Of a DNA stretch of 64,000 bases, positions 4,015 to 23,249 are shown in pieces (position 1 is the stretch's first letter; the number at the start of each line of letters is the position of its first letter). The position numbers were made by a program, and so were the translations under genes. The notes below the pieces were generated by a model that made no database searches, had not been told where the DNA came from, and saw nothing but the letters and a program-made list of their open reading frames with translations. The DNA lies in contig DATABS010000094.1 of assembly GCA_036259475.1 (NCBI GenBank), forward strand, positions 11,801 through 75,800, written 5' to 3'. Origin of the DNA: Acidimicrobiia bacterium. Lineage in GTDB: Bacteria; Actinomycetota; Acidimicrobiia; Spongiisociales; ZC4RG35.

Positions 4015-4928
4015 CTCCGCTGATGGTCTTGGCGGCGACCGCATCGGCGGTGGTGATAGGTGCTCTGATGTGGCTCCTCGTCCCGCCGACTCCCCGGCTG
4101 GCGGGTCGCGTCCGTCCCTACGTGTCGCCTTCGGAGGCGTCTCGCTCCAACCATCCGAGATCCGCCGTGGCTCGGATCTTCGGGCCGATAGTCATCCGGC
4201 TCGCCACGGCTTTGGGCCGGCGTCTCGACCCCTCGGGAGATGAGGCCCTGGCGGTGCGTCTGCGTCAGGCCGGTGTCTACCCGGACCTGAGCGACGCCGA
4301 CCGCGTTGGCGCCTTCCGCCTTCGTCAACTCCGCTCGCTGCTGATCGGAGGAGTTGGAGGCGGGCTCGTTGCGACCGCCCTGGGGTTCTCGACCCAGGGA
4401 GTCGTGGGCTTGGTGATGGTCGGCGGCGTTGCCACTTTGGGTCGCACGCGGGGAAGGGTGGAGCGGCTGCTGGAGGATCGTCGCCTGCGGATGAGGATCG
4501 AGATCTACACCATCGATCAGCTCCTCGCCCTGCGGGTGAGGGCCGGAGGGGCGGTCATGCAAGCGGTCGCCCAGGTGGTCAACCGGGGCCGAGGGGAGGT
4601 GGTGACGGAACTTGCCGAGGCGGCGCGGCTTCATCGTGCCGGAATGACGGTGGCTGAGGCGTTCGGGCGAATCGCCGATCTCAGCGCAGAACCGGCCTGC
4701 GCCCGGACCTACCGCCTCCTGGCGATCGCCGACGAGCGCGGTGTCGACCTGGCGGCGGGTCTCCTGGCGCTGGCGGAGGATGTACGCGAAACGCGCCGGG
4801 AAGCGATGAAGCGAGCGGCCACGCGCCGTCGGGCGGCGATGCTCGTGCCGACGATTGCACTCCTAGCCCCCACCCTCATGCTGTTCGTCGCCGCTCCCCT
4901 TCCCTATCTCCTGACCGGCTGGCGATGA
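4011..4928 (+). CDS. tadC: TadC (second T2SS-F domain inner membrane protein)
   Basis: GTG at 4011 overlapping the tadB stop (GTGA); N- and C-terminal TM helices; paralogous position after tadB. Confidence 0.7.
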   Translation: MTPLMVLAATASAVVIGALMWLLVPPTPRLAGRVRPYVSPSEASRSNHPRSAVARIFGPIVIRLATALGRRLDPSGDEALAVRLRQAGVYPDLSDADRVGAFRLRQLRSLLIGGVGGGLVATALGFSTQGVVGLVMVGGVATLGRTRGRVERLLEDRRLRMRIEIYTIDQLLALRVRAGGAVMQAVAQVVNRGRGEVVTELAEAARLHRAGMTVAEAFGRIADLSAEPACARTYRLLAIADERGVDLAAGLLALAEDVRETRREAMKRAATRRRAAMLVPTIALLAPTLMLFVAAPLPYLLTGWR

Positions 4929-11131: not shown

Positions 11132-12328
11132 ATGGCTTCGATCACCTTTGACAACGTAGGCAAGGTCTACCCAGGGGGGACACGGGCCATCTTTGGCGTC
11201 GACATCCACGTCGAAGACGGTGAGTTCGTCGTGCTGGTCGGCCCGTCGGGCTGCGGCAAGTCGACTCTGCTGCGGATGGTGGCCGGCCTGGAAGAGGTGA
11301 CGGAGGGCAAGCTGAGCATCGGCGATCGGGTGGTGAATGACGTGCCTCCCAAGGATCGGGACATCGCGATGGTGTTCCAGAACTACGCCCTCTACCCGCA
11401 CATGACCGTCTACGACAACATGGCGTTCGGGCTGAAGCTGCGCAAGATGGCCGACGACGAGATCGACCGGCGGGTGAACGACGCCGCCCGGGTTCTGGAA
11501 ATCTCCGACTACCTCGACCGCCGTCCGAAGGCTCTGTCGGGCGGCCAGCGTCAGCGGGTGGCGATGGGCCGGGCCATCGTGCGTGAGCCGGCCGCCTTCC
11601 TCATGGACGAGCCGCTGTCCAACCTCGATGCCAAGCTCCGTGTGCAGATGCGCTCCGAGATCGGACTGCTGCAGGAGCGCCTCGGCACCACCACTCTCTA
11701 CGTGACCCACGACCAGGTAGAGGCGATGACGATGGGCGATCGGGTGGCGGTGTTGCGCAAGATCTCCGCCGAGCAGGGCAACCTCCAGCAGATCGACAGT
11801 CCCCGGAACCTGTACGACAACCCCAACAACCTCTTCGTGGCCGGCTTCATCGGCAGTCCGTCGATGAACTTCGTCTACGGGACGCTGCAGGAGGAGAACG
11901 GTTCGCTGGGTGTGAAGTTCGCCGGCAACACCCTCAAGGTGAGCCGCGAGGCGGTGAGCAACCGTCCCAACCTGGCCTCGTATGCCGGCAAGGAGCTCGT
12001 CATCGGCCTCCGGCCCGAGGCATTCGAGATCGAGAGTGCCGCGCCCCAGGCAGAGAACAAGATCCCGATCAAGGTGAACCTGACCGAGCAGCTCGGTTCC
12101 GAGGCGTTCGTCCACTTCGACCTCGACTCGCCGCCTGTCATAACCCCGGACATCCAGGAGCTGTTGGAGGATCAGGGAGCCGATGCCGAGTCGCTCGGCT
12201 CGAGCACCAAGTTCACCGCCCGGGTCAACCCGGATCTGGCCCCTCGCGCCGGTGAGGAGGCCCGTCTCGCCGTCGAGACCTCTAAGCTGCACTACTTCGA
12301 CCGGGACACCGGATCTGCTATCCGATAG
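11132..12328 (+). CDS. msiK: sugar ABC transporter ATP-binding protein (MsiK/UgpC/MalK type) with C-terminal TOBE-like domain
   Basis: Walker A GPSGCGKST, signature LSGGQRQRV, Walker B FLMDEPLSNLD; ATG at 11132 preceded by ggaaggaga SD (the longer ORF-track start is rejected). Confidence 0.85.
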   Translation: MASITFDNVGKVYPGGTRAIFGVDIHVEDGEFVVLVGPSGCGKSTLLRMVAGLEEVTEGKLSIGDRVVNDVPPKDRDIAMVFQNYALYPHMTVYDNMAFGLKLRKMADDEIDRRVNDAARVLEISDYLDRRPKALSGGQRQRVAMGRAIVREPAAFLMDEPLSNLDAKLRVQMRSEIGLLQERLGTTTLYVTHDQVEAMTMGDRVAVLRKISAEQGNLQQIDSPRNLYDNPNNLFVAGFIGSPSMNFVYGTLQEENGSLGVKFAGNTLKVSREAVSNRPNLASYAGKELVIGLRPEAFEIESAAPQAENKIPIKVNLTEQLGSEAFVHFDLDSPPVITPDIQELLEDQGADAESLGSSTKFTARVNPDLAPRAGEEARLAVETSKLHYFDRDTGSAIR

Positions 12329-12390: not shown

Positions 12391-13083
12391 TCAGCCGGTG
12401 TCGACCAGGTCGCCGACGCGGGCGGAGGCGTTGCCTTCGACCGGTTTCCCGTGTCCGAACACCACCGTGTCGAAGGAGAGCTCGGCCAGTTTGGCGACCG
12501 AGCCGACGGCGACGGCCATGTCGTCGGAGAACCGGGGATCGGGACCGGCCACCCCCCCATCGGCGCCGACCAGGGCGTCACCCGCCAAGAGTAGATCGAG
12601 CTCGGAATCGAGAAACGAAAGGTGGCCGGGGGTGTGGCCGGGCGTCTCGATGACCTGGAGGCCCATCACTTGGTCCCCGTCTCCCACGGTCGACAGCGGT
12701 CGCGGGGACGTCACGGCATCGGCATCGCCGGCACCGACGTAGCCGGTAGCTTCGGGGGCGGCTTCGAGCACCTCGGCCAGTGAGCCGACATGGTCGGGAT
12801 GAGCATGGGTGAGGGCGACGTATCCCACGTCGCTCCAGGTGAGACCCAAGCCGCCGACGGCCGTCTCGATCGAGCCGGCGCTGCCTGCCACACCGGTGTC
12901 GACAACCACCGCTTCTCCATTGCGGGCGATCACGTACGCCGATACCGAGCCGAGATCCACCCGCCGCCACGGGTCTCCTCCTTCGGCGGCCGGTTCGGAG
13001 CACGCGACGCCGAGCACGGCCACCGCCAAACCGGTCTTGCCCAGATCGGTCAAGAAGACCCGGCGAGTGAGCCTGAGGGACAT
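12391..13083 (-). CDS. MBL-fold metallo-hydrolase, Tat/Sec-exported (TRRVFL twin-arginine-like signal)
   Basis: THAHPDHVGS (HxHxDH) motif; N-terminal MSLRLTRRVFLTDLGKTGLAVAVLGVACS. Confidence 0.75.
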   Translation of the reverse strand: MSLRLTRRVFLTDLGKTGLAVAVLGVACSEPAAEGGDPWRRVDLGSVSAYVIARNGEAVVVDTGVAGSAGSIETAVGGLGLTWSDVGYVALTHAHPDHVGSLAEVLEAAPEATGYVGAGDADAVTSPRPLSTVGDGDQVMGLQVIETPGHTPGHLSFLDSELDLLLAGDALVGADGGVAGPDPRFSDDMAVAVGSVAKLAELSFDTVVFGHGKPVEGNASARVGDLVDTG

Positions 13084-14477: not shown

Positions 14478-15266
14478 TCAGCGGCCCGGGTCGAGGATCC
14501 GCGCCATCTGGCGGCTGCGTGCGACCAGTTTTCCTTGGGAGTCCCACAGGTCTGCGGATTCGTCGTGGTAACCCCCTTCGACCACATCGGTTCGTAGCCA
14601 CGCCGTCACCGGTCCGGCGGCGGGGTGATTCCAGAAGTGGATCGTCAACTCGAGCGTTGGAGTCCAGGCCATGTAGCCCAGGTTGAAGGCGACCGGGGCG
14701 AACCCGTCGGCGAACACCGGCAGGGCGAGCAGGTCCGGTGGGCGTCCGTCGGCGAAGGCGATAGTCCCGCCGATTTCGGGCTCGCCGGTGGGCCGGCCCA
14801 GGGCGCCGCCGGCCACCGCAGTCGGAATCTGATACTCGAAGTTCTCGGGAAACTCCTGGATGAGAAGGCTCCGTTCCGTCTCGAAAGGACCTGTCAGGTC
14901 CGGCGGAGCCAGGAAGCTCTGCGAGGGCCCGTCGCGGTCCAGCTGGCCGAGTGTCGCAAGCATCCGTACCCGTTCCCGGTCGCCCTGGGCGAGCGCCAGC
15001 ATGAGAATGGTCGTCGATCGACCGTCCTTGACCACCTGAGCGCTGATCTCGACCGGTCCGGGGACCGTGGGGGATAGGAAGTGGGCCGTGACCGTCAGAG
15101 GGTCGGGATGGTCGGATACCGCCTGGGCGGCCCGAAGCATCATGGCCATCACATAGCCCCCGTTGGGCACCTTCTCGATCGTCCACCGCTCGTGCACCAC
15201 AGCCGAGAACCTGCCGTCGGCAACTGCCTCGACCGCAGTGTCGACGTCGAACCGAAAGCCCTCCAT
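14478..15266 (-). CDS. acyl-CoA thioesterase family protein (double hotdog fold)
   Basis: about 260 aa with two hotdog-like halves; weak family assignment from sequence. Confidence 0.5.
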   Translation of the reverse strand: MEGFRFDVDTAVEAVADGRFSAVVHERWTIEKVPNGGYVMAMMLRAAQAVSDHPDPLTVTAHFLSPTVPGPVEISAQVVKDGRSTTILMLALAQGDRERVRMLATLGQLDRDGPSQSFLAPPDLTGPFETERSLLIQEFPENFEYQIPTAVAGGALGRPTGEPEIGGTIAFADGRPPDLLALPVFADGFAPVAFNLGYMAWTPTLELTIHFWNHPAAGPVTAWLRTDVVEGGYHDESADLWDSQGKLVARSRQMARILDPGR

Positions 15267-15332
15267 GGCCGCAGGCTAACCGGCCCACCCACCGGTTTTC
15301 GCTCGCCGTCCCGGCATGACGACAATCCACTC

Positions 15333-16913
15333 ATGCAACCCAAGGTCGTCGTCGCCGAGAAGATCGCCGATTCGGGCATCGAGACCCTCCAGGCCTCATG
15401 CCGCGTGGAAATGGCGGTCGGGGTGGAGCGGACCGAGCTCCTTTCCCGGATGGGCGATGCCGAGGGGCTGGTGGTCCGCTCCGCTACCCAGGTCGACGCC
15501 GAACTGATCGCCGCCGCGCCTCGACTTCGGGTGATCGGGCGAGCGGGCATCGGAGTCGACAACATCGACGTCGGCGCAGCCACCGAGGCGGGCATCGTGG
15601 TGGTCAACGCGCCTCAGGCCAACATCATCTCGGCTGCCGAGCACGCTCTCGCCCTGATGCTCGCCCAGGCGCGCAACGTGCCGAGGGCCGACGCCACGCT
15701 CCGCTCGGGCGTGTGGGATCGGTCCCGGTTCGAGGGCGTCGAATTGCACGGCAAGACGCTGGGGGTGATCGGCCTCGGCCGGATCGGAACTTTGGTCGCC
15801 CAGCGGGCGCTGGCCTTCGGCATGCGGCTCACCGCCTATGACCCCTACGTGTCGGAGGAGAGAGGGCGACGACTCGGGGTGGAGATGGTCGACCTCGACT
15901 CGCTTCTCGCCGAATCGGACTTCATCACCATCCACCTGCCGATGACGTCCGACACCGAGGGGCTCATCGGCAAGGAGGCGTTGAGCAAGGTCAAGCCAGG
16001 CGTCCGGATCGTCAACGCCGCCCGAGGCGGGATCCTCGACGAGGATGCGCTGGCCGAAGCCATACGAGAAGGAAGGGTGGCGGGCGCCGCCCTCGACGTC
16101 TACTCCGCTGAGCCGCTGACCGAGTCGCCCTTGTTCCATGAGGACCGTGTGGTAGTGACGCCTCATCTCGGCGCTTCGACCGCCGAGGCCCAGGACAAGG
16201 CGGGAACTGACGTCGCCGAAGCGGTGGCCGCAGCGCTGCGCGGCGAGCTCGTTCTCTCCGCAGTCAACGTCGACATGGGGTCGTCCGTCCCAGACGAAGT
16301 CGCCGCCTATCTCCCCGTCGCCGAACAGCTAGGCCGGGTATTCACGGCTCTCGCCGGGGGGCTGCCCGAGCGGCTCACCGTCCGGGTCGCGGGCCGAGTG
16401 GGGTCCGGAGAAGTCCGGCCGCTGACGCTCGCAGTCATGAAAGGAGCCCTCTCCTCGGTGTCGTCGCGAGCCGTCACCTACGTCAACGTCCCGTCTCTCG
16501 CCGACCAGCACGGCATCTCGGTCGACCAGGAGACATCGGCCGAAGCCCAGCATTACCAGTCGGTGGTCAGCGTGCGGGGCAGCGTGGGAGGGAGAGAGGC
16601 CTCCGTGTCCGCGACCCGCACCCGCAAGGGTCCCACTCTGGTTGAGATCCTCGGCCATGATGTCGAGCTGCCCGTGTCGTCCCGGATGCTCATCGTCCGG
16701 AATGCCGACGTGCCCGGTGTGATCGGCCGGCTCGGGTCATTCCTCGGCGATCAAGGAGTCAACATCGCCAACATGGTGGTCGGCCGTGCGCCGGGCACCG
16801 GCGACGCCGCCATGATGGGTCTGAACCTCGATGACTCTCTGACCGACGACCAGTTGGCCCAACTCCGCCGGCTGCAAGGTATAGAAGAAGCCCGCTACGT
16901 GTCGCTCGGCTAG
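15333..16913 (+). CDS. serA: D-3-phosphoglycerate dehydrogenase with C-terminal ACT domain
   Basis: NAD-binding GVIGLGRIGTLVAQR, catalytic region, 526 aa; ATG at 15333 (the upstream ORF-track extension is rejected). Confidence 0.9.
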   Translation: MQPKVVVAEKIADSGIETLQASCRVEMAVGVERTELLSRMGDAEGLVVRSATQVDAELIAAAPRLRVIGRAGIGVDNIDVGAATEAGIVVVNAPQANIISAAEHALALMLAQARNVPRADATLRSGVWDRSRFEGVELHGKTLGVIGLGRIGTLVAQRALAFGMRLTAYDPYVSEERGRRLGVEMVDLDSLLAESDFITIHLPMTSDTEGLIGKEALSKVKPGVRIVNAARGGILDEDALAEAIREGRVAGAALDVYSAEPLTESPLFHEDRVVVTPHLGASTAEAQDKAGTDVAEAVAAALRGELVLSAVNVDMGSSVPDEVAAYLPVAEQLGRVFTALAGGLPERLTVRVAGRVGSGEVRPLTLAVMKGALSSVSSRAVTYVNVPSLADQHGISVDQETSAEAQHYQSVVSVRGSVGGREASVSATRTRKGPTLVEILGHDVELPVSSRMLIVRNADVPGVIGRLGSFLGDQGVNIANMVVGRAPGTGDAAMMGLNLDDSLTDDQLAQLRRLQGIEEARYVSLG

Positions 16914-17728
16914 GCGGCTCGGTCGGCGAAGGTCACGTCGGCCTCGAAGCCGGCCCTCCCGCCGACCCGGCGGACGCTCCTCAGCACCACGCCGCCCACC
17001 AGCGCGATCATGCCCGCGGTGGTGACCGCCCGACCGAGATCCCAGCCGAGCGACGTCGCCAGGCTGAAGCCGAGGAATCGGCCCAAATTGTCGGTGACCG
17101 GAGCGCCGGGAACGAACGACAGGGAGGTGCCTGGACCGAGGGTGAAAGGCCAGAACGAGAGGTTCATCAACAGGCCGAAGACCAGAGAGGACAACGCTCC
17201 GTAGGCGGCCAGAAGGGCGAGTTCCTTACGGCCGCCGAGGGCCGGCAGCAGCCCCGCTCCCATTCCGACCCACGAGGCGGCCAGCATCTGATACGGCAGC
17301 CACGGACCCACCCCGCCGGTGATGAAGGCCGAGACCACCAGCGTGGTGGAACCCAGAACGAATCCGAAGCCCGGCCCGAAGGCTCTCCCCCCCAGCACGA
17401 TCATGAAGAAGACGAGCTCGACCCCACCGGCACCGGCCCCCAGAGGTCGGAGGGCGGCGCCGAGAGCGGAGAGCACTCCCAGCATGGCCACCGTCTTGGC
17501 GTCGAGGCCGCCACCGGCGATTTCCCCGATGACGACCGCCCCGACCAGTGGCAAGACGAGCGCGAACAGGAGCGGGGCGACGTCCGTCTGGGCCAGGGAG
17601 CTGTCCGAGGAGATGAACAACGGCCAGGCGAAGGCGAGGATGCTGGCGACCGCGGCCAGGCCGAGTGTGATTCCCGACCGAGATCGAACCGGGATCACAC
17701 TTCGGCGGGCCGGCATCGATGCGGTCAT
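16910..17728 (-). CDS. ECF transporter S (substrate-capture) component, candidate corrinoid-specific
   Basis: multi-pass membrane protein; ATGA overlap with the ecfA stop; last gene of the riboswitch-controlled operon. Confidence 0.6.
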   Translation of the reverse strand: MTASMPARRSVIPVRSRSGITLGLAAVASILAFAWPLFISSDSSLAQTDVAPLLFALVLPLVGAVVIGEIAGGGLDAKTVAMLGVLSALGAALRPLGAGAGGVELVFFMIVLGGRAFGPGFGFVLGSTTLVVSAFITGGVGPWLPYQMLAASWVGMGAGLLPALGGRKELALLAAYGALSSLVFGLLMNLSFWPFTLGPGTSLSFVPGAPVTDNLGRFLGFSLATSLGWDLGRAVTTAGMIALVGGVVLRSVRRVGGRAGFEADVTFADRAA

Positions 17729-19323
17729 GCCGGCTCCAGGGCAACGGCCACCTGATTCACCGTGAGCCATGCCCCCGGTGCGAAGATCTTGGCCACCTGG
17801 GGGGCGAAGATGGGCGATGACACCACCACCTCGCCGGTGGGGCCGTCGGCCACGATCTCGCCGTCCGCCAGGACGATGACTCGATCGGCCGCCTCGGCGA
17901 CGAACTCGACGTCGTGGGTGGCGATCATCACCCCGGCGCCTTGTGCCGCAACCCGGCCAATGATCGATGCGAGCCGCTCCTTGGCCGCGTAGTCCAGGCC
18001 ACGGGTGGGTTCGTCGAGGAGGAGCAGGCTCGGGCCGGCGGAGAGCTGGATGGCGAGCACCAACCCCAGCTTTTCGCCTTCCGACAGGTCGGCCGGGTGC
18101 GACCCGAGGTCGACCGCTTCGAGGATCCGTTCCACCAGACGGAGGGTGGTTCCCGGCGCCGCCTCGCTCGTCTGGTCGGACCGGTCGCACTCTTCGGCGA
18201 CTGTCTCCATGAACAGGAGGTCGGATGGCGTGTGGGGAACGAGGCCGACCAGCCGCCGGGCAGCCGCCGGATGCATGTCGGCGGGATCCCTGCCGGATAC
18301 TCTGACGCTGCCCCCGGTGCGAGTTCCGCTCCCCTGGATCGCCCACAGGAGCGACGACTTGCCAACCCCGTTGCGACCCATCACGGCGACGACTTCTCCG
18401 GCGCCGAGCCGGAAGGTGGTGGGCTGAAGCGCTTCCACCGGACCGTAGCCGACCGACAGGTCCCTGACTTCCAGGCACGGCTCCGGCTCGGTGCGTGTGG
18501 GGGGGACGAAGGCGGCGAGCCGGCCGGCGACCTCGGCGGACCGGCGGCGGGCATCACGCACCGACAGCGGTAACGGCTTCCATCCCGCCAGGCGGCCGAG
18601 ATGGACGACGGGCGGAGCCACCAGAGACTGTTCCATCATCGACGATGGGTCGCCGGTTGTCGCCCGGCCGTATGAATCGAGATGAACGATCCGGTCGGCG
18701 TACTGGACGACCCGCTCGAGGCGATGCTCGGCCATCAGCACGGTGGTGCCGAGATCGTGTACCAGTCGGGTGAGGGCGGCGAGCACCTCCTCGGCGGCGG
18801 CTGGATCCAGTGCCGAGGTCGGTTCGTCGAGCAGCATCACCCGGGGATGGGCCGTCAGCACGGCTCCGATCGCTACTCGCTGGGCCTCACCTCCGGAGAG
18901 TTCCGCCAGCCGACGCGAACGCAGCCGGGAGAGTCCCATCAGGTCGAGCGTCTCCTCCACTCTCTTGCGCATCACCTGGGGAGCCAGTCCCAGCTGTTCC
19001 ATCGTGTAGGCCAGCTCCTCCTCCACGGTGTCCGTGACGAAACCGGTGGTCGGATCTTGGGCAACGAGTCCGACGATGTCGGCCAGCTCCCGGACCGCCA
19101 CCCGGCTGGTGTCGTAGCCCGCCACGACGACGCGACCGGTCAGAATTCCACCGCTGAACCTGGGCACCAGACCGTTGACGGTTCGGAGGAGCGTCGTTTT
19201 GCCCGATCCGGTCGGGCCGATGACCAAGGCCAGCTCGCCCTCGGTAATCCCCAGGTCGACCCCATCGAGTGCCGGATGGGAGGCGCCGGGATATCGGAAC
19301 GAGACGCGCTCGAAGCGGATCAT
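17725..19323 (-). CDS. ecfA: ECF transporter fused tandem ATPase (EcfA1-EcfA2, two ABC domains)
   Basis: two Walker A motifs (GPTGSGKTT, GRNGVGKSS) and two signature motifs (LSGGEAQRV, LSEGEKLGL). Confidence 0.85.
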   Translation of the reverse strand: MIRFERVSFRYPGASHPALDGVDLGITEGELALVIGPTGSGKTTLLRTVNGLVPRFSGGILTGRVVVAGYDTSRVAVRELADIVGLVAQDPTTGFVTDTVEEELAYTMEQLGLAPQVMRKRVEETLDLMGLSRLRSRRLAELSGGEAQRVAIGAVLTAHPRVMLLDEPTSALDPAAAEEVLAALTRLVHDLGTTVLMAEHRLERVVQYADRIVHLDSYGRATTGDPSSMMEQSLVAPPVVHLGRLAGWKPLPLSVRDARRRSAEVAGRLAAFVPPTRTEPEPCLEVRDLSVGYGPVEALQPTTFRLGAGEVVAVMGRNGVGKSSLLWAIQGSGTRTGGSVRVSGRDPADMHPAAARRLVGLVPHTPSDLLFMETVAEECDRSDQTSEAAPGTTLRLVERILEAVDLGSHPADLSEGEKLGLVLAIQLSAGPSLLLLDEPTRGLDYAAKERLASIIGRVAAQGAGVMIATHDVEFVAEAADRVIVLADGEIVADGPTGEVVVSSPIFAPQVAKIFAPGAWLTVNQVAVALEPA

Positions 19324-20418
19324 CTAGGCGGCCTTCTCGACGATCGGCCGCGGTGCCCGGGCGGCAACCTGCGGAGCGGAGATGGCCGGCAGAGCCGCGA
19401 GGAGAAGTGAAAGAAGGGCAACAGGGCCGGCGCCCGGCCATTCGAGCGGCTGGAGTGATGGGTTGAGTGTGGTCGGCTGCATGACACCGGCTGCCGCCAA
19501 CCCCACCGCGGCAGCTCCACCTGCCAGAGTCACCAGCCACTCGCGGCCGCCCCACGCATCGGGCCGGTAGCGAGTGCGCGCCACATTGCGGCCGAGCTGG
19601 CTGAGCCCCAGGGCAGCGAGCGCGGCGCCGGCGGTCATCGTCCCTCCCGAGACCGCGACGTCGCCTCCAGAGAGAAGCCCGAAGAGGCCGACGCAGACCG
19701 CTCCGAGTCCCAGCCAGGCCGCGAGCCCGACGATCACAGAGTGTTGCGCCCTCCCGGCGCCGGATCGGCCATAACCCCTCGAGTCCATCGACGCGGCGAG
19801 GGCGATCGACCGATGGAGGGCGTCCTCCAGGACCGGAACGAGAAGCGACCGCACGGATCTCAGGCCTCGGCCGCTCTCTCCCCTCAGACGACGGGCTCTC
19901 CGCACGCGAGCGAGCGACTCGACCAGCTGGGGGGCGAGCGAGAGTGCCACGACGGCCGAGGTGGCCACACCGGCTAGAGAGCGGGGCAGTGAGGGAAGCA
20001 GCCGCCGGGGATCGGCCAGCGAGTTGGCGGCTCCTATGACCACCACGATCGTGGCCAGGCGGAGCCCGTCGTAGAGGCCGGCCAGCAGCTCCTCGACGGT
20101 GACCGTGCCGCCCAACTCGACGCCCGCCGGAAGGCTAACTCGGGGGAGGTCCACGAGAGGCGTGCGGCCGAAGTCACCGCCCAGCAAGAGTCGGAATCCA
20201 ACCCGGATGGCGATCACCACCAACCCCACCACCAGGTACATCCGGTATCCCCCTGCCCACCGAATCTGCGTCCTACGGGATGCCACCACCAGAGAGGTCA
20301 CGGCGACGATCAGCCCGAGCAGCAGCGGATTCCTGGTCTGGGTGGCGGCGGCGACGAGTCCCAGTGCCCACAGCCACCAGGCAGCGGCATGGAGCCGTCT
20401 CGCTCGGCGCCTTCTCAT
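19324..20418 (-). CDS. ecfT: ECF transporter T component (EcfT/CbiQ family)
   Basis: CbiQ-like TM protein with conserved Arg-rich cytoplasmic loop (ARVRRARRLRG); ATG at 20418 forms ATGA with the DUF4430 gene stop. Confidence 0.8.
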   Translation of the reverse strand: MRRRRARRLHAAAWWLWALGLVAAATQTRNPLLLGLIVAVTSLVVASRRTQIRWAGGYRMYLVVGLVVIAIRVGFRLLLGGDFGRTPLVDLPRVSLPAGVELGGTVTVEELLAGLYDGLRLATIVVVIGAANSLADPRRLLPSLPRSLAGVATSAVVALSLAPQLVESLARVRRARRLRGESGRGLRSVRSLLVPVLEDALHRSIALAASMDSRGYGRSGAGRAQHSVIVGLAAWLGLGAVCVGLFGLLSGGDVAVSGGTMTAGAALAALGLSQLGRNVARTRYRPDAWGGREWLVTLAGGAAAVGLAAAGVMQPTTLNPSLQPLEWPGAGPVALLSLLLAALPAISAPQVAARAPRPIVEKAA

Positions 20419-21218
20419 GCGGCGCCTCCGCCCCGGCGCCACGCCACTACCGCGGCGGTGGTGGCCACCGCCGCGATCACCAGAGCGCCGGCGAGGAAGC
20501 CGCCGGCGCCGTTCCCTGGCTCGCCCGCCGCGAGCGGCATGCTGGTCGCCGAGCTGGGCGACGGCTCCGTGGTCGGGGGAACGGTCGTGGTTGGGGCCAC
20601 AGTGGTGGTCGGGATGAGGGTCGTGGTCGGCGCAGAGTCGCTCGACACCGAGGACGAGGGAGGCACCGTGGTGGTCGTGCTCGTCGTGGTCGTGCTCGTG
20701 CTCGTCGTGGTGGTGGAAGTAGTGCTCGTCGTCGTGGAGCTGGTGGTCGTGGTCGTGCTACTCGTCGTGGTGGTGGCTGGCGCCGGGATCGGAAAGTCCG
20801 GAGGGTCGGTGTGTGAAGTGGCGAACGCCCACCCTTCGAAGTCGCCCGGGATGGTGGCGGCGGCTCCACTGGAGTTGAACCGCCAGGTGCCGCCCAGATC
20901 GGCCGTCCAGTACGACCAGAACGCGTCGGCCGGGGGCGTGTCGGCGCAGTCCTCGGTCTCCGGACCGGGCTGGCCGTCGATCCGACAGACGAACGCCGCC
21001 CCGGTCTGGACCCGGTCGACGTCGAAGCCGGCCTGGGCGAGCGCCTCCAATCCGGTACTCGCCGTCGGGGCGCATCCGACGACCACACCTCCACCGAGGT
21101 CGGCGAAGTCGACCACCACCGTCGTCCCCGCGCCCGGATCACAGGCGGCAGCCGCGGCTGGAGTGGCCGCCGCCCCCACCAAGAGGGCCGCCGCCAGGAT
21201 CCGCTCCGACCACCTCAC
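20415..21218 (-). CDS. DUF4430 (transcobalamin beta-domain-like) lipoprotein with Thr/Ser-rich stalk and C-terminal hydrophobic anchor
   Basis: signal plus lipobox-like AAAAC; motif FWSYWTADLGGTWRFNSSGAAATIPGDFEGWAF matching the DUF4430 YWMY..NG....GA....DGD.I.W.Y pattern; long (T/S)n linker; C-terminal GGFLAGALVIAAVATTAAVVAWRRGGG; GTG start at 21218. Confidence 0.6.
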   Translation of the reverse strand: MRWSERILAAALLVGAAATPAAAAACDPGAGTTVVVDFADLGGGVVVGCAPTASTGLEALAQAGFDVDRVQTGAAFVCRIDGQPGPETEDCADTPPADAFWSYWTADLGGTWRFNSSGAAATIPGDFEGWAFATSHTDPPDFPIPAPATTTTSSTTTTTSSTTTSTTSTTTTSTSTTTTSTTTTVPPSSSVSSDSAPTTTLIPTTTVAPTTTVPPTTEPSPSSATSMPLAAGEPGNGAGGFLAGALVIAAVATTAAVVAWRRGGGAA

Positions 21219-21223
21219 CTCTG

Positions 21224-22513
21224 TCAGTCCCCCAACGCCCGGAAGAGGAACGCCGCCATCTCTCCACGGCTGACGGAGTCGCCGGGGCAGAACCGGTCGT
21301 TGGCGGGCGGGTTGCAGCCTCGGGTGATGCCGGTGGCGGCGAGCCATCGGATGTCGGTGTGGAACACCGAGTCTGCGGTGTCGGTGAAGTCGCCGGACTG
21401 GCCGGTGGGCAGGGTGTCGCCGAGCGCCCGGTGGAGGAAGGCGGCCATCTGCCCGCGGGTGACGGAGTCGCCCGGGCAGAACCGGTCGTTGGCGGGCGGA
21501 TCGCATCCTCTCGTCACGTCGGAGTCGCCCAGCCAGTCGGCTTCCCGGGCGAACAGGTGATCCCAGGTGACGTCGGCAAACGGGTCGACATCCAAGAGGT
21601 GATAGGGGCCGCCGCCGAGGGCCAGCACGCCCTGCAGGGTGGCGAACCCGTTGGGCACCGTATCCGCTTCGGTGAAGCGGATACCGCCGTCGGCAGTCTG
21701 GAGCGACATGACGAAGTCCGCCGCCAGGTCGGCGGCGGCGGTCTCGCCGGCGGCGCGCAATGCCTGGCCCGCTACGCCGGCCGTGTTGGCGTTCGGATCA
21801 CCAAAGGGGCTGGCCCACGAGCCGTCGGCGTTCTGCTCACCGATGAGGAAGTCGGCCGCCAGCGCCGCGACCTGGCTGTGGCCAGCCGCAATCGCCGCCT
21901 GCAGGGCGAGGGCGGTCACGTCAACATCCGGGGCGCCGGGATCGAAGGGACTCGACCAAGACCCGTCGGAGTTCTGCTGGGCGGCGAGCCAATCGCCGGC
22001 ATCCGTCGGACTCCCATCGAGGGTGGATGCCAGGGCCAGCATTGCCAGAGAATGGGTGAACATGTCGTCGGCGAAGCTGCCGTCGGCCCGTTGGAGGGCA
22101 CGGAGCTCAGATTCCAGGTGGCGGCCCGGCAGGAAGGAGGCCGGGTCTTCGCGGTTGACGAGCACGGCCAACAGCACCTTGGCCAGGGCGCCGGGGTTGG
22201 GTGCATCGGCCGGTCCGACGTAGTCGGCGGCGCCTTCGACGAGTTCGGCCAGCGCTTGACGGGCGGACCCCTCCCTTACACCGGCTGAGGCGAGGGCGAA
22301 GATGACGTCGGTGCGGGCGGCGGCCTTGCCGAACTGGTCGAAGCCAGGCTGAGAGGAGTCGAGCTCGGCGGCTATCCAATCCGCCGCCGCGGTCGAAGCG
22401 TTCTCTTGCCCCTCATCGGCCTGTGCCAGCGAAGGCATTGCGACGGCTCCGACGAGAAGGATGGTCAGGAATACGCCTGCGAGTCGCCCGGGGAGGCGAG
22501 TGGATGAAGTCAT
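21224..22513 (-). CDS. secreted alpha/alpha-toroid (prenyltransferase/squalene-cyclase-like QW repeat) protein with two C-terminal SLH cell-wall-anchoring domains
   Basis: signal peptide MTSSTRLPGRLAGVFLTILLVGAVAMPSLAQA; four Q..(A/S)DGS(W/F) repeats about 45 aa apart; two about 55-aa C-terminal repeats F.D....F...I.WLA..GITRGC.PPANDRFCPGDSV(T/S)RG(Q/E)MAAFL.RALGD resembling SLH. Confidence 0.65.
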   Translation of the reverse strand: MTSSTRLPGRLAGVFLTILLVGAVAMPSLAQADEGQENASTAAADWIAAELDSSQPGFDQFGKAAARTDVIFALASAGVREGSARQALAELVEGAADYVGPADAPNPGALAKVLLAVLVNREDPASFLPGRHLESELRALQRADGSFADDMFTHSLAMLALASTLDGSPTDAGDWLAAQQNSDGSWSSPFDPGAPDVDVTALALQAAIAAGHSQVAALAADFLIGEQNADGSWASPFGDPNANTAGVAGQALRAAGETAAADLAADFVMSLQTADGGIRFTEADTVPNGFATLQGVLALGGGPYHLLDVDPFADVTWDHLFAREADWLGDSDVTRGCDPPANDRFCPGDSVTRGQMAAFLHRALGDTLPTGQSGDFTDTADSVFHTDIRWLAATGITRGCNPPANDRFCPGDSVSRGEMAAFLFRALGD

Positions 22514-22555
22514 GTCGATACGGTGTCCTTCCTCTCGCGGTCTGGTTAGCGACCC

Positions 22556-22790
22556 AGCGACGAGGTGGTTCCGATCGACGGTCCGCCGAAGGCGGTGCTG
22601 GTCGGGCTTTCGTCCCGGGCCCCGCCCGTAGACCTCGACGGGTTCGATGGAGCCGCAGCCATGTCTGGTATCCCGGCTCGCCGTCCCATTGAGACGGCCT
22701 ACGGTTGCGGGTCAGCGCCGGATTTCGACCGGCTTCCCCAGACAGGGCCCGATTCGGTTGTCACCCGGACCCTACCACCCCCGCGTCCCG
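22556..22790 (-). ncRNA. cobalamin (B12) riboswitch in the 5' leader of the SLH/DUF4430/ECF operon
   Basis: minus-strand core GGGGAAGCCGGTCGAAATCCGGCGCTGACCCGCAACCGTAGG (22738-22699) matches the Cbl riboswitch core AGGGAA..GGUGAAAAUCC...GCUG.CCCGCAACUGUAA; downstream GGGACGGCGAGCCGGGATACC resembles the B12-box; possible anti-SD CCTCGTCGC pairing with GCGAGAGG before the ATG at 22513. Confidence 0.6.
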
Positions 22791-22796
22791 GACGAC

Positions 22797-23249
22797 TCAG
22801 ATGAGCGCCTGGACGATCCACCCCGCAGCCAGGCCGTAGACGCCGGCCACCAGGTCGTCGGCGGTGACCCCCAGGCTCCCGGTCAGATGCTCGGCGGGAG
22901 CGACCCCGGGGAAGGCCCGCTTGAAGATGTCGGCGGCCCGAAACACGGCCCAGGCGACGAGGGCTGCCGGGAGGGCCAGACCGAGCGTGGCGAGGAAGGT
23001 CCCCGCCGCTTCGTCGATGACGACCCAGCCGGGGTCGCCTTCGATGCTGGCGAAGGGACGCACCGAGATGATCGAAGCCGCTGTCAGGGCAACCAGAGCC
23101 AGTGCCTGCGCCCAGGCACCGAAGGCTCCCAGCCATACGGCAAAGGGCAAGGCGAATAGCGAGCCCACCGTTCCCGAACCGATGTCGGCCCCACGAATCT
23201 GTCGGAGGATGAGGCCGGTCCCGAAGAACGAAGCGACGACACGTGACAC
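22797..23249 (-). CDS. pgpA: phosphatidylglycerophosphatase A
   Basis: PgpA-family small membrane protein, 150 aa; family assignment moderate. Confidence 0.6.
   Translation of the reverse strand: MSRVVASFFGTGLILRQIRGADIGSGTVGSLFALPFAVWLGAFGAWAQALALVALTAASIISVRPFASIEGDPGWVVIDEAAGTFLATLGLALPAALVAWAVFRAADIFKRAFPGVAPAEHLTGSLGVTADDLVAGVYGLAAGWIVQALI

Follow-up and report, generated by a model that had tools for sequence, protein, structure and literature searches.

What does an ECF transporter carry when its genes follow a cobalamin riboswitch and two genes for extracytoplasmic proteins, and would these proteins take part in uptake? The question is raised by an operon in a stretch of 64,000 nucleotides (the window) from an Acidimicrobiia bacterium. 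By textbook definition, ECF transporters are ABC importers without a solute-binding protein, and the uptake of B12 is poorly assigned in most Gram-positive and actinobacterial lineages. Against that hallmark of the ECF class, the operon encodes two extracytoplasmic proteins of carrier-like fold. The reading we favor, with a probability of roughly two in three, is that of a B12-repressed, five-gene operon for a dedicated (group I) ECF importer of cobalamin or related corrinoids, working by the mechanism proposed below. The operon would then be a candidate for the system by which much of Actinomycetota mainly imports B12; the lineages that carry it include Streptomyces, Micromonospora, Saccharothrix, Nocardioides, and Acidimicrobiia. 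Three traits set it apart, as follows. Its S component lies outside the named families, its EcfT has an extra block, and it encodes a transcobalamin-like extracellular pair, with one member that also occurs as a fusion to S.

Layout of the operon and its leader

The operon runs on the minus strand, and its five genes, P, D, ecfT, ecfA1A2, and S, are tightly packed behind a cobalamin riboswitch (Table 1). Read directly from the sequence, D and ecfT overlap in an ATGA at 20418–20415, ecfA1A2 and S overlap in an ATGA at 17728–17725, and ecfT and ecfA1A2 abut at TAGATG with zero overlap. The coordinates of the three transporter genes and both ATGA overlaps are those of the first-pass annotation, which was made from the sequence alone. 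The start codon of D is most likely the GTG at 21218, 5 nt past the P stop codon. No convincing terminator was found inside the operon by a simple promoter and terminator scan, which is uninformative at the 68–70% G+C of the operon sequence. Among the window genes tested, there is no B12-dependent enzyme or salvage gene to corroborate the use of B12; the twenty neighbors scanned are ordinary housekeeping genes.

Table 1. Leader and genes of the operon, in order of transcription.
Feature	Position	Strand	Basis or remark
Cobalamin riboswitch aptamer, operon leader	22646..22794	-	Rfam RF00174
Leader from aptamer to P start, probable expression platform	22514..22645	-	Fold; terminator scan negative
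P, secreted α/α-toroid protein, 429 aa	21224..22513	-	N-terminal signal peptide, two C-terminal SLH-like repeats
D, 267 aa counted from GTG 21218	20415..21218	-	Transcobalamin-β-like (DUF4430-fold) domain
ecfT, T component, 364 aa	19324..20418	-	Pfam CbiQ
ecfA1A2, fused tandem ABC ATPase, 532 aa	17725..19323	-	Two ABC_tran domains
S component, 272 aa	16910..17728	-	S-component fold; distinct, mainly actinobacterial family

The riboswitch match is full-length (model positions 1–189; E = 2.6e-8), its 45.8 bits exceed the gathering score of 31.5, and it starts 3 nt past the stop codon of an upstream pgpA-like gene. The first-pass annotation had staked its reading on this riboswitch, and at such a score the call holds. 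Between the aptamer and P, there is no T-tailed terminator. In the minimum-free-energy fold of this leader, the ribosome-binding site, GAGAGGAAGG, is paired with an upstream CCACCUCGUCGC stretch; on this model, control would act on translation.

A cobalamin-riboswitch-like leader is present in all 23 of the related loci tested. Eighteen of the 23 reach or exceed the Rfam gathering score and five fall just below it; in these five, the cobalamin riboswitch is, at E ≤ 0.1, the sole sense-strand Rfam match, found where it is expected. Additional P and D paralogues have cobalamin riboswitches of their own (L032, L049, and L051). Since B12 riboswitches also govern cobalt transporters and B12-independent isoenzymes, regulation alone is insufficient to fix the substrate. 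The corrinoid role suggested by the earlier annotation is strongly backed by the conservation of the leader across the 23 loci.

The ECF module and its conservation

Residues 7–218 of EcfT match Pfam CbiQ (40.4 bits; gathering score 25). The coupling-helix motif, SMDSRGY, is at residue 210, with an Arg-rich ARVRRARRLRG stretch upstream of it, and the protein thus has both the family membership and the Arg-containing coupling-helix motif of a T component. Eight hydrophobic segments are found, four of them at residues 228–343; the C-terminal extension of ~140 aa is predicted to have four transmembrane segments. This extension is conserved, as 64 of 71 orthologue alignments extend to query residue 320 or beyond. 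The fused ATPase has two domains of the ECF/CbiO type, each feature occurring in duplicate, namely Walker A, the LSxGE signature, and Walker B with Glu, and from these motifs both nucleotide sites look canonical. Its score against the NCBIfam cbiO subfamily TIGR01166 is 219.1 (cut-off 211.8); ECF_ATPase_1 and ECF_ATPase_2 are its best NCBIfam matches, yet both fall under their own equivalog cut-offs. As names, CbiQ and cbiO apply generically to the T and A subunits of ECF transporters. The earlier description of a complete T, fused A1A2, and S transporter behind a cobalamin riboswitch is borne out.

The S component is an integral-membrane protein with the ECF S-component fold; the structure model is moderately confident (pLDDT 72.9). 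At 272 aa, it is longer than the solved S components (155–214 aa), in line with the annotation's remark on its length. S falls outside every named S family, including CbrT, BtuM, CbiM, FolT, RibU, BioY, and ThiT. Homology to CbrT is undetected, neither homology to BtuM nor the conserved cobalt-ligand Cys of that family is found, and searches of Pfam CbiM and of NCBIfam gave zero matches at E ≤ 0.1. The annotation had called for the comparison with CbrT, BtuM, and CbiM, and had named BioY, RibU, and ThiT as families whose match would speak against it; S groups with none of these. The sole Pfam match of the window S is to the generic PF12822 ECF_trnsprt, at 26.0 bits against a gathering score of 30.7. 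The same model is a precomputed match in many relatives and reaches 42–48 bits in more distant ones. A Streptomyces orthologue scores 20.4 against the folT family (cut-off 60). Across the family alignment, the N-terminus is variable and gapped, in keeping with the earlier observation that S lacks a CbiM-type N-terminus, and no His or Cys is invariant. S belongs to a discrete family outside all the named ones, as the annotation had suspected; its members come mostly from Actinomycetota.

An ECF module encoded alongside its own S gene belongs, by definition, to group I, whereas a group II module is encoded apart from S genes and serves several S components. Here, the S, T, and A genes lie in one operon, overlap or abut, and keep their synteny elsewhere, and A–S, T–A–S, and S–T fusions occur as well. 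The module is therefore a dedicated one of group I. The label "group-II-like" in the first-pass annotation was a misnomer, at odds with the annotation's own description of the module as dedicated rather than shared, which stands.

The five-gene operon is common across Actinomycetota, and the P-D-T-A-S order is found again in dozens of genomes. In the 63 genomes with enough sequence upstream of S, the fused ATPase lies directly before S in 62, and T is found in 61, D in 55, and P in at least 33. By tblastn, P is undetected directly upstream in about half of the loci and D in 8 of the 63, so the transporter may do without P and D, or their genes may lie elsewhere. A further genome encodes D and S as a single polypeptide, and a cobalamin riboswitch (55 bits) and a P-like gene precede the fused gene. 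The coupling of the module to extracytoplasmic proteins, pointed out from the window alone, is thus real, conserved, and in that genome fixed as a fusion. The arrangement is not peculiar to the window: the operon is widespread in Actinobacteria, where ECF modules behind B12 riboswitches have been noted before (PMC5301498).

The extracytoplasmic proteins P and D

P has a hydrophobic segment at residues 11–29. The window protein gives weak Pfam matches to SQHop_cyclase_N/C and SLH, and Prenyltrans or SQHop matches are found in 16–21 of 31 P orthologues. A profile of the 31 orthologues matches squalene-hopene cyclase at 8e-35 and the haptocorrin α domain at 9e-4 over ~210 residues, the latter a weak and marginal link; a Cobalamin_bind match occurs in 1 of the 31 (E = 0.0037). 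Judged by these sequence matches, P is clearly an α/α toroid, nearer in sequence to the terpene cyclases than to transcobalamin by a wide margin. At the position of the cyclase catalytic DVDDTA, P has DVDVTA. In the present organism, P appears to be anchored to the wall by its SLH-like repeats.

D consists of a signal peptide, a transcobalamin-β-like domain of ~115 aa, a Pro/Thr-rich linker, and a C-terminal membrane anchor. Its ectodomain extends from about Cys22 to about residue 135. Four Cys are conserved in D; they may pair into two disulfides, or the first may be a lipobox Cys. The resemblance to the DUF4430/transcobalamin β domain is at the level of the predicted fold, and the best structural match is haptocorrin (4kkj), whose structure was solved with cobinamide bound. 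Sequence models give little. At E ≤ 10, the window D does not match Pfam PF14478 (DUF4430), and among 40 orthologues one does (E = 0.25). Pfam and NCBIfam searches with full-length D, trimmed D, and the 40 orthologues gave nothing usable, and a D profile against PDB sequences gave chance antibody matches only; D homologues bear PF28005.1. Since a word-indexed homologue search with the 121-aa domain returned only 4 proteins, an alignment query was needed and used. The name "DUF4430 gene" in the first-pass annotation therefore agrees with the predicted fold, but the Pfam DUF4430 HMM does not match at all.

P-type and D-type proteins weakly match the NCBIfam models SCO2321 family membrane protein and SCO2322 family protein of Streptomyces; from these matches, the two named families are paralogous P/D-like pairs. 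The models do not give the identity of P and D, with scores of 47–70 against a cut-off of 300 and of 26 against 85, far under the cut-offs even for a Streptomyces orthologue.

Proposed mechanism, substrate, and comparison with known systems

We propose the following mechanism for the dedicated corrinoid importer. At low intracellular levels of the B12 coenzyme, the leader with its riboswitch would permit expression. P, an α/α toroid apparently held at the wall by its SLH-like repeats, would work outside the cell, and the transcobalamin-β-like domain of D would sit there on its long Pro/Thr-rich tether and membrane anchor. P and D would capture the corrinoid extracellularly, possibly clamping it between them as the α and β domains of transcobalamin do, and would hand it to the membrane S component. 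S would then dock on the long EcfT scaffold and topple across the membrane, driven by ATP hydrolysis in the fused EcfA1A2, to free the cofactor inside; the presumed direction of transport is thus inward.

It is tempting to read P and D as a bacterial transcobalamin split into two proteins, one half each, that captures corrinoids outside and delivers them to a dedicated S component. This part of the proposal is tentative, its chances being a little below even. If true, this would be the first family of ECF transporters in which extracytoplasmic proteins genuinely bind the substrate, and P and D would be plausible bacterial relatives of the α and β domains that are fused in the animal B12 carriers. 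Confirmation of the proposal as a whole would change the view that ECF systems never employ external binders, would bear on the origin of the animal carriers, and would allow better prediction of B12 auxotrophy in soil and aquatic metagenomes.

The substrate might instead be a B12-related molecule other than the complete cofactor, for example cobinamide, another incomplete corrinoid, or the lower-ligand base, taken up for salvage and not for direct use. The riboswitch context suits any substrate of the B12 pathway equally, ECF-CbrT likewise carries cobinamide (PMC5997447), and the haptocorrin structure that D matches best holds cobinamide. A free base fits poorly with the resemblance of the D fold to corrinoid-binding domains, and salvage with the absence of cobS/cobU/cobT-type genes among the window genes tested. 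We consider this reading rather unlikely; complete and incomplete corrinoids are not told apart by computation.

Two further readings, a cobalt transporter and a terpene cyclase, were considered and ranked low. A cobalt or nickel importer, as a divergent analogue of CbiMNQO, could be B12-repressed since cobalt would be needed only for B12 synthesis. Yet S has no Pfam CbiM match, its variable N-terminus is not a conserved metal-binding start, and its alignment has no invariant His or Cys; the operon has no small two-TM gene of the CbiN kind, and the D domain has the fold of corrinoid carriers, not of metal-binding proteins. The CbiQ and cbiO labels, being generic, add nothing for a metal, and this reading is improbable. 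That the module serves P as an enzyme or wall factor, for example by moving a prenyl or terpenoid lipid, with B12 control incidental, is very improbable: the strongest sequence relatives of P are indeed squalene-hopene and other class II terpene cyclases, but P is a single secreted toroid and the cyclase a two-barrel protein, the catalytic motif is altered, the riboswitch is kept in all 23 loci and also precedes stand-alone P and D paralogues, and what the D–S fusion joins directly to S is not P but the domain that resembles corrinoid carriers.

In the literature searched (DUF4430, transcobalamin, or prenyltransferase with ECF and cobalamin riboswitch; SCO2321–2325), no description of the present operon was found. 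The importer proposed here is a further variant of the B12-riboswitch-controlled ECF modules already noted in Actinobacteria (PMC5301498). For the freshwater acI Actinobacteria, Kang et al. (2017, PMC5301498) proposed that B12 auxotrophs transport cobalamin through an ECF module encoded behind cobalamin/AdoCbl riboswitches. Both are actinobacterial ECF modules preceded by B12 riboswitches, a likeness of context; the acI paper gives one annotation sentence and leaves the S family, the long T, and P/D partners unanalysed.

Among ECF-type B12 transporters, biochemical and structural proof exists for ECF-CbrT of Lactobacillus delbrueckii alone (PMC5997447). Like ECF-CbrT, the present system has S, T, and two ATPase domains, a link to B12 by genomic context, and cobalamin or cobinamide as likely substrates. 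CbrT draws on a group II module, which is shared; the present one is dedicated, and in some cases it is fused to S. Here, moreover, S is ~80 aa longer, the ATPases are fused, T has the extra C-terminal block with its four predicted transmembrane segments, and the toroid protein P is added. The CbrT locus, nrdJ-cbrS-cbrT-pduO, has an extra small gene, cbrS, and in L. rhamnosus a DUF4430 gene adjoins the gene for a B12-dependent reductase. By analogy, an extracytoplasmic transcobalamin-β-like partner may be a theme common to the CbrT systems and the present operon.

In contrast to transcobalamin, intrinsic factor, and haptocorrin, with which sequence identity is 13–17%, the two halves here would be P and D, encoded as different proteins and each apparently fixed to the cell envelope, and they would feed a membrane transporter, whereas the animal carriers feed an endocytic receptor. 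CbiMNQO and NikMNQO resemble the present system in having a dedicated module whose genes share one operon, additional subunits beyond the core, T and A of the CbiQ/CbiO type, and, often, B12-riboswitch control. They differ in that the present operon has neither the CbiM N-terminal metal-binding motif nor CbiN, and its accessory proteins are of the corrinoid-carrier type. Finally, BtuCD-F and the BtuG-type surface lipoproteins of Bacteroides are riboswitch-controlled systems in which a high-affinity extracytoplasmic binder passes B12 to a membrane transporter; BtuF, a periplasmic binding protein of class III, serves a type II ABC importer, and the β-propeller BtuG serves a TonB-dependent channel. 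The logic proposed for the present operon, a binder that hands B12 over, is similar to theirs, with folds and a transporter class that are unrelated.

Operon layout, distribution and control

The operon encodes, in order, P, an alpha/alpha-toroid surface protein; D, a tethered protein with a transcobalamin-beta-like (DUF4430) fold; EcfT (T); the ATPase EcfA1A2 (A); and the S component. The gene boundaries, lengths and overlaps reported in the first-pass annotation are correct, and its observation as a whole is confirmed. ATGA overlaps occur at both the D/T and A/S junctions, the T/A junction reads TAGATG, and no credible internal terminator was found in the operon. The window is high in G+C, at ~65-71%. 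Upstream, the stop codon of a pgpA-like gene lies 3 nt before the start of the riboswitch aptamer. Thus, the operon promoter lies inside the pgpA-like gene, or the operon is read through from it. Downstream, the stop codon of a convergent serA-like gene overlaps that of S by 4 nt (16910-16913), leaving no space for a terminator between the two genes.

Coordinates of the operon, its neighbours and features at related loci. Positions refer to the window unless a locus from another genome (L-number) is named.
Feature	Position	Strand	Remarks
Cobalamin riboswitch	22794-22646	minus	Rfam, full-length; 45.8 bits (gathering score 31.5), E 2.6e-8
P	22513-21224	minus	429 aa
P, DVDVTA	21940-21960	minus
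P, C-terminal repeats	21224-21590	minus	residues ~308-429
D	21218-20415	minus	GTG start, 5 nt past P stop codon
ecfT	20418-19324	minus	364 aa
ecfT, C-terminal extension	19324-19760	minus	residues ~220-364
ecfA1A2	19323-17725	minus	532 aa
S	17728-16910	minus	272 aa
pgpA-like gene	22797-23249	minus	same strand as operon
serA-like gene	15081-16913	plus	convergent with S
L032 cobalamin riboswitches	390-464, 1409-1626, 4264-4422, 12496-12630	plus
L032 cobalamin riboswitch	12003-12128	minus
L025 riboswitch match, cobalamin or AdoCbl	2211-2425	minus	opposite strand, beside operon; 93.8 bits
L010 riboswitch match, AdoCbl-like	11429-11595	minus	opposite strand, downstream
P0380 (D-S fusion) gene	L085 8001-10301		162-kb contig
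P0380 operon	L085 5361-11377
P-/D-type proteins with weak SCO2321/SCO2322 NCBIfam matches	L074 3411-6847; window P and D

A sample of 80 loci was taken from a one-genome-per-species collection and searched with the five window proteins, and synteny was counted in the 63 loci having at least 6.5 kb upstream of S. The fused ATPase directly adjoins S upstream in 62 of the 63, T lies upstream in 61 and a D-type gene in 55; tblastn places a P-type gene there in at least 33, a lower bound. Carriers include Streptomyces, Micromonospora, Lentzea, Saccharothrix, Knoellia, relatives of Nocardioides, and Acidimicrobiia, and one operon-bearing metagenome-assembled genome is labelled Chloroflexia. Together with the conserved long form of T (64 of 71 orthologue alignments extend at least to residue 320 of the query, which has 364 aa), these counts show that the operon is a standard feature of many Actinomycetota, and not a local oddity.

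A cobalamin-clan riboswitch, in sense orientation upstream of the first operon gene, reaches the Rfam gathering score in 16 of 21 loci. In each of the remaining five, a permissive rescan gave a sub-threshold match at the expected position (25-38 bits, E 0.0005-0.018) and no other match from 4,227 families, except for one antisense AdoCbl-like element downstream in L010. Two additional loci, found by other routes, have the riboswitch at 38 and 55 bits, so that the leader is present in 23 of 23 loci overall, five of these being sub-threshold. In L032 (Embleya sp.), there are five cobalamin riboswitches within 20 kb, some of which head further D and P paralogues, standing alone on the flanks of the ECF operon. 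Hence, B12 regulation is a property of the P and D families themselves. L049 and L051 have a second D/P pair upstream, also riboswitch-led. The opposite-strand elements of L025 and L010 point to more B12-regulated genes, divergent or convergent. No T-tailed terminator is present in the operon leader, and in its minimum-free-energy fold the ribosome-binding site pairs with an upstream stretch; translational control by the leader is plausible.

The ECF module and its S component

T matches Pfam CbiQ over residues 7-218 (40.4; gathering score 25) and carries the SMDSRGY coupling motif. Past the CbiQ domain, an extension of ~140 residues contains four hydrophobic segments; one possibility is that it is a docking site for the anchor of D or for S. 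Both ABC domains of A are complete, and their Walker A, signature and Walker B-Glu motifs are canonical. A scores above the NCBIfam cbiO subfamily cut-off, and its best NCBIfam matches are two ECF-ATPase equivalogs, with scores slightly below their cut-offs. The module was previously called group-II-like, a label that is not borne out: by the standard definition, a dedicated module with its own S gene belongs to group I.

S is 100% identical to a protein of an Acidimicrobiia metagenome-assembled genome, named by NCBI as an ‘ECF transporter S component’. It matches the generic PF12822 at 26.0 bits, under the gathering score of 30.7. The other Pfam S families (CbiM, BioY, the riboflavin, thiamine and queuosine families, and ABC_cobalt) gave no match to S at E <= 0.1, no NCBIfam model matched it, and none of the solved S components was matched by the S sequence or by a 25-sequence S profile. 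The S-component fold is established by comparison with known S components, as follows: ThiT 12.1, CbiM 11.7, RibU 11.6 and FolT 11.5, then PanT, BioY and YkoE, with BtuM at 8.3 and CbrT (partial chain) at 6.4. S is not specially close to CbiM or to either known B12-binding S-type protein. Nor does it cluster with BioY, RibU or ThiT, being roughly equidistant from these and the others at the available sensitivity.

A word-indexed search places relatives of S in over 7,300 clusters, formed at 90% identity; among the matches listed, they are 59-81% identical and nearly all from Actinomycetota. When 1.84 billion representatives were searched exhaustively by HMM, no more than 1,864 matched at E <= 0.001, and 388 did so at E <= 1e-30. 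S belongs to a discrete family, not to the tail of the general S-component superfamily. An alignment of 25 sequences has 66 invariant columns of ~270, an unusually high conservation, and a variable N-terminus. The Arg-rich termini of S (residues 1-40 and 250-272) suggest that both ends are cytoplasmic, although S has seven predicted hydrophobic segments and, in its model, an extra N-terminal helix ahead of the six-helix core.

The long S-family representatives are, by Pfam, A1A2-S, T-A-S (1102 aa) and S-T fusions (P0315, P0288, P0289, P0281, P0327, P0364 and P0391). Gene-calling errors at ATGA overlaps could account for some of them; the fusions fit a dedicated one-to-one module. The 766-aa protein P0380 has a signal peptide, a D-type domain (hhalign against the D profile: probability 98.7%, E 3.5e-16), a Pro/Thr-rich linker and a transmembrane segment, followed by an S component. 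Its operon consists of a cobalamin riboswitch (55.1 bits), a P-like gene (750 aa), the D-S fusion and a CbiQ-type T, with no ECF ATPase gene adjoining on L085. Since this gene order differs from that of the unfused operon, a gene-calling artefact is unlikely. P0380 is independent evidence for D working physically beside S. The first-pass interpretation is partly supported, and its central point is strengthened: a distinct S family, probably corrinoid-specific, coupled to extracellular proteins.

The extracellular proteins D and P

The architecture of D is conserved. Behind the signal peptide comes a ~115-aa domain in which four cysteines are conserved; then follow a Pro/Thr-rich linker and, at the C-terminus, a transmembrane anchor with arginines after it. 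The AF2 model of D, based on 47 sequences, has high confidence (pLDDT 89.2, pTM 0.85). The earlier label DUF4430 holds for the fold and fails as an HMM assignment, as the Pfam DUF4430 model does not match D of the window and matches just one of 40 D orthologues, at E 0.25. Most D homologues (P0125-P0244) have a precomputed match to a newer Pfam accession, PF28005.1, and the D domain probably has a curated family already.

P has one alpha/alpha toroid between a signal peptide and two SLH-like repeats at its C-terminus; as SLH domains, the repeats score weakly (18.9 bits; gathering score 20.8). The two tandem repeats are of ~55 aa, each with one Cys-x(8)-Cys pair (TRGCDPPANDRFCPGDSVTRGQMAAFL). 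They are unaligned in most orthologues from other orders, so that the anchoring mode of P seems lineage-specific. A 31-sequence P profile matches squalene-hopene cyclase (8e-35), complement and macroglobulin thioester domains and, over one stretch of ~210 residues, the haptocorrin alpha domain (E 9e-4); one P orthologue matches Pfam Cobalamin_bind at E 0.0037. These matches are no more than suggestive of a relationship between P and the carrier alpha domain. Weak sub-threshold matches of P-type and D-type proteins to the NCBIfam models ‘SCO2321 family membrane protein’ and ‘SCO2322 family protein’ suggest that Streptomyces coelicolor may have a paralogous P/D-like pair.

Proposed import model and known systems

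The evidence supports the reading of the operon as a dedicated importer of the ECF type that is repressed by B12, takes up corrinoids and has two external partners; we infer the substrate identity, the binding by P and D, and the hand-over to S. In animal B12 carriers, an alpha toroid and a beta domain clamp cobalamin between them. In the simplest model, P, in the wall and anchored in the window's lineage by its SLH-like repeats, and D, on its flexible tether at the membrane, would clamp the corrinoid as separate chains, or relay it, before handing the ligand on to S. The three transporter components would act as in other ECF systems, with ATP driving the toppling of S against the T scaffold.

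Computation does not distinguish complete cobamides from a different substrate of the B12 pathway, for instance cobinamide or some other incomplete corrinoid. The operon is unlikely to encode a cobalt transporter: S lacks the CbiM motif, CbiN is absent, no His or Cys is invariant in the 25-sequence S alignment, and the accessory fold is one of corrinoid carriers. DVDVTA of P aligns with the catalytic DVDDTA of squalene-hopene cyclase, and the P family consensus is SDxDATA, with the last acidic residue of the cyclase motif replaced. P is likewise unlikely to have a lipid or terpenoid role, being a single secreted barrel with DVDVTA in place of the catalytic motif; on these grounds it is no candidate cyclase either.

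In the literature searched, there is no description of the P-D-T-A-S operon, the transcobalamin-like fold of D or the D-S fusion. ECF modules preceded by cobalamin riboswitches were noted in acI Actinobacteria by Kang et al., who proposed that they take up B12 (PMC5301498). ECF-CbrT, the only ECF transporter proven to carry B12, differs in having a shared module, and its S protein looks unrelated to S of the window (PMC5997447). The CbrT locus also includes cbrS, which is uncharacterised, and in L. rhamnosus a DUF4430 gene adjoins the gene of a B12-dependent reductase. From these two cases, an external beta-domain partner may be a wider, so far unremarked theme.
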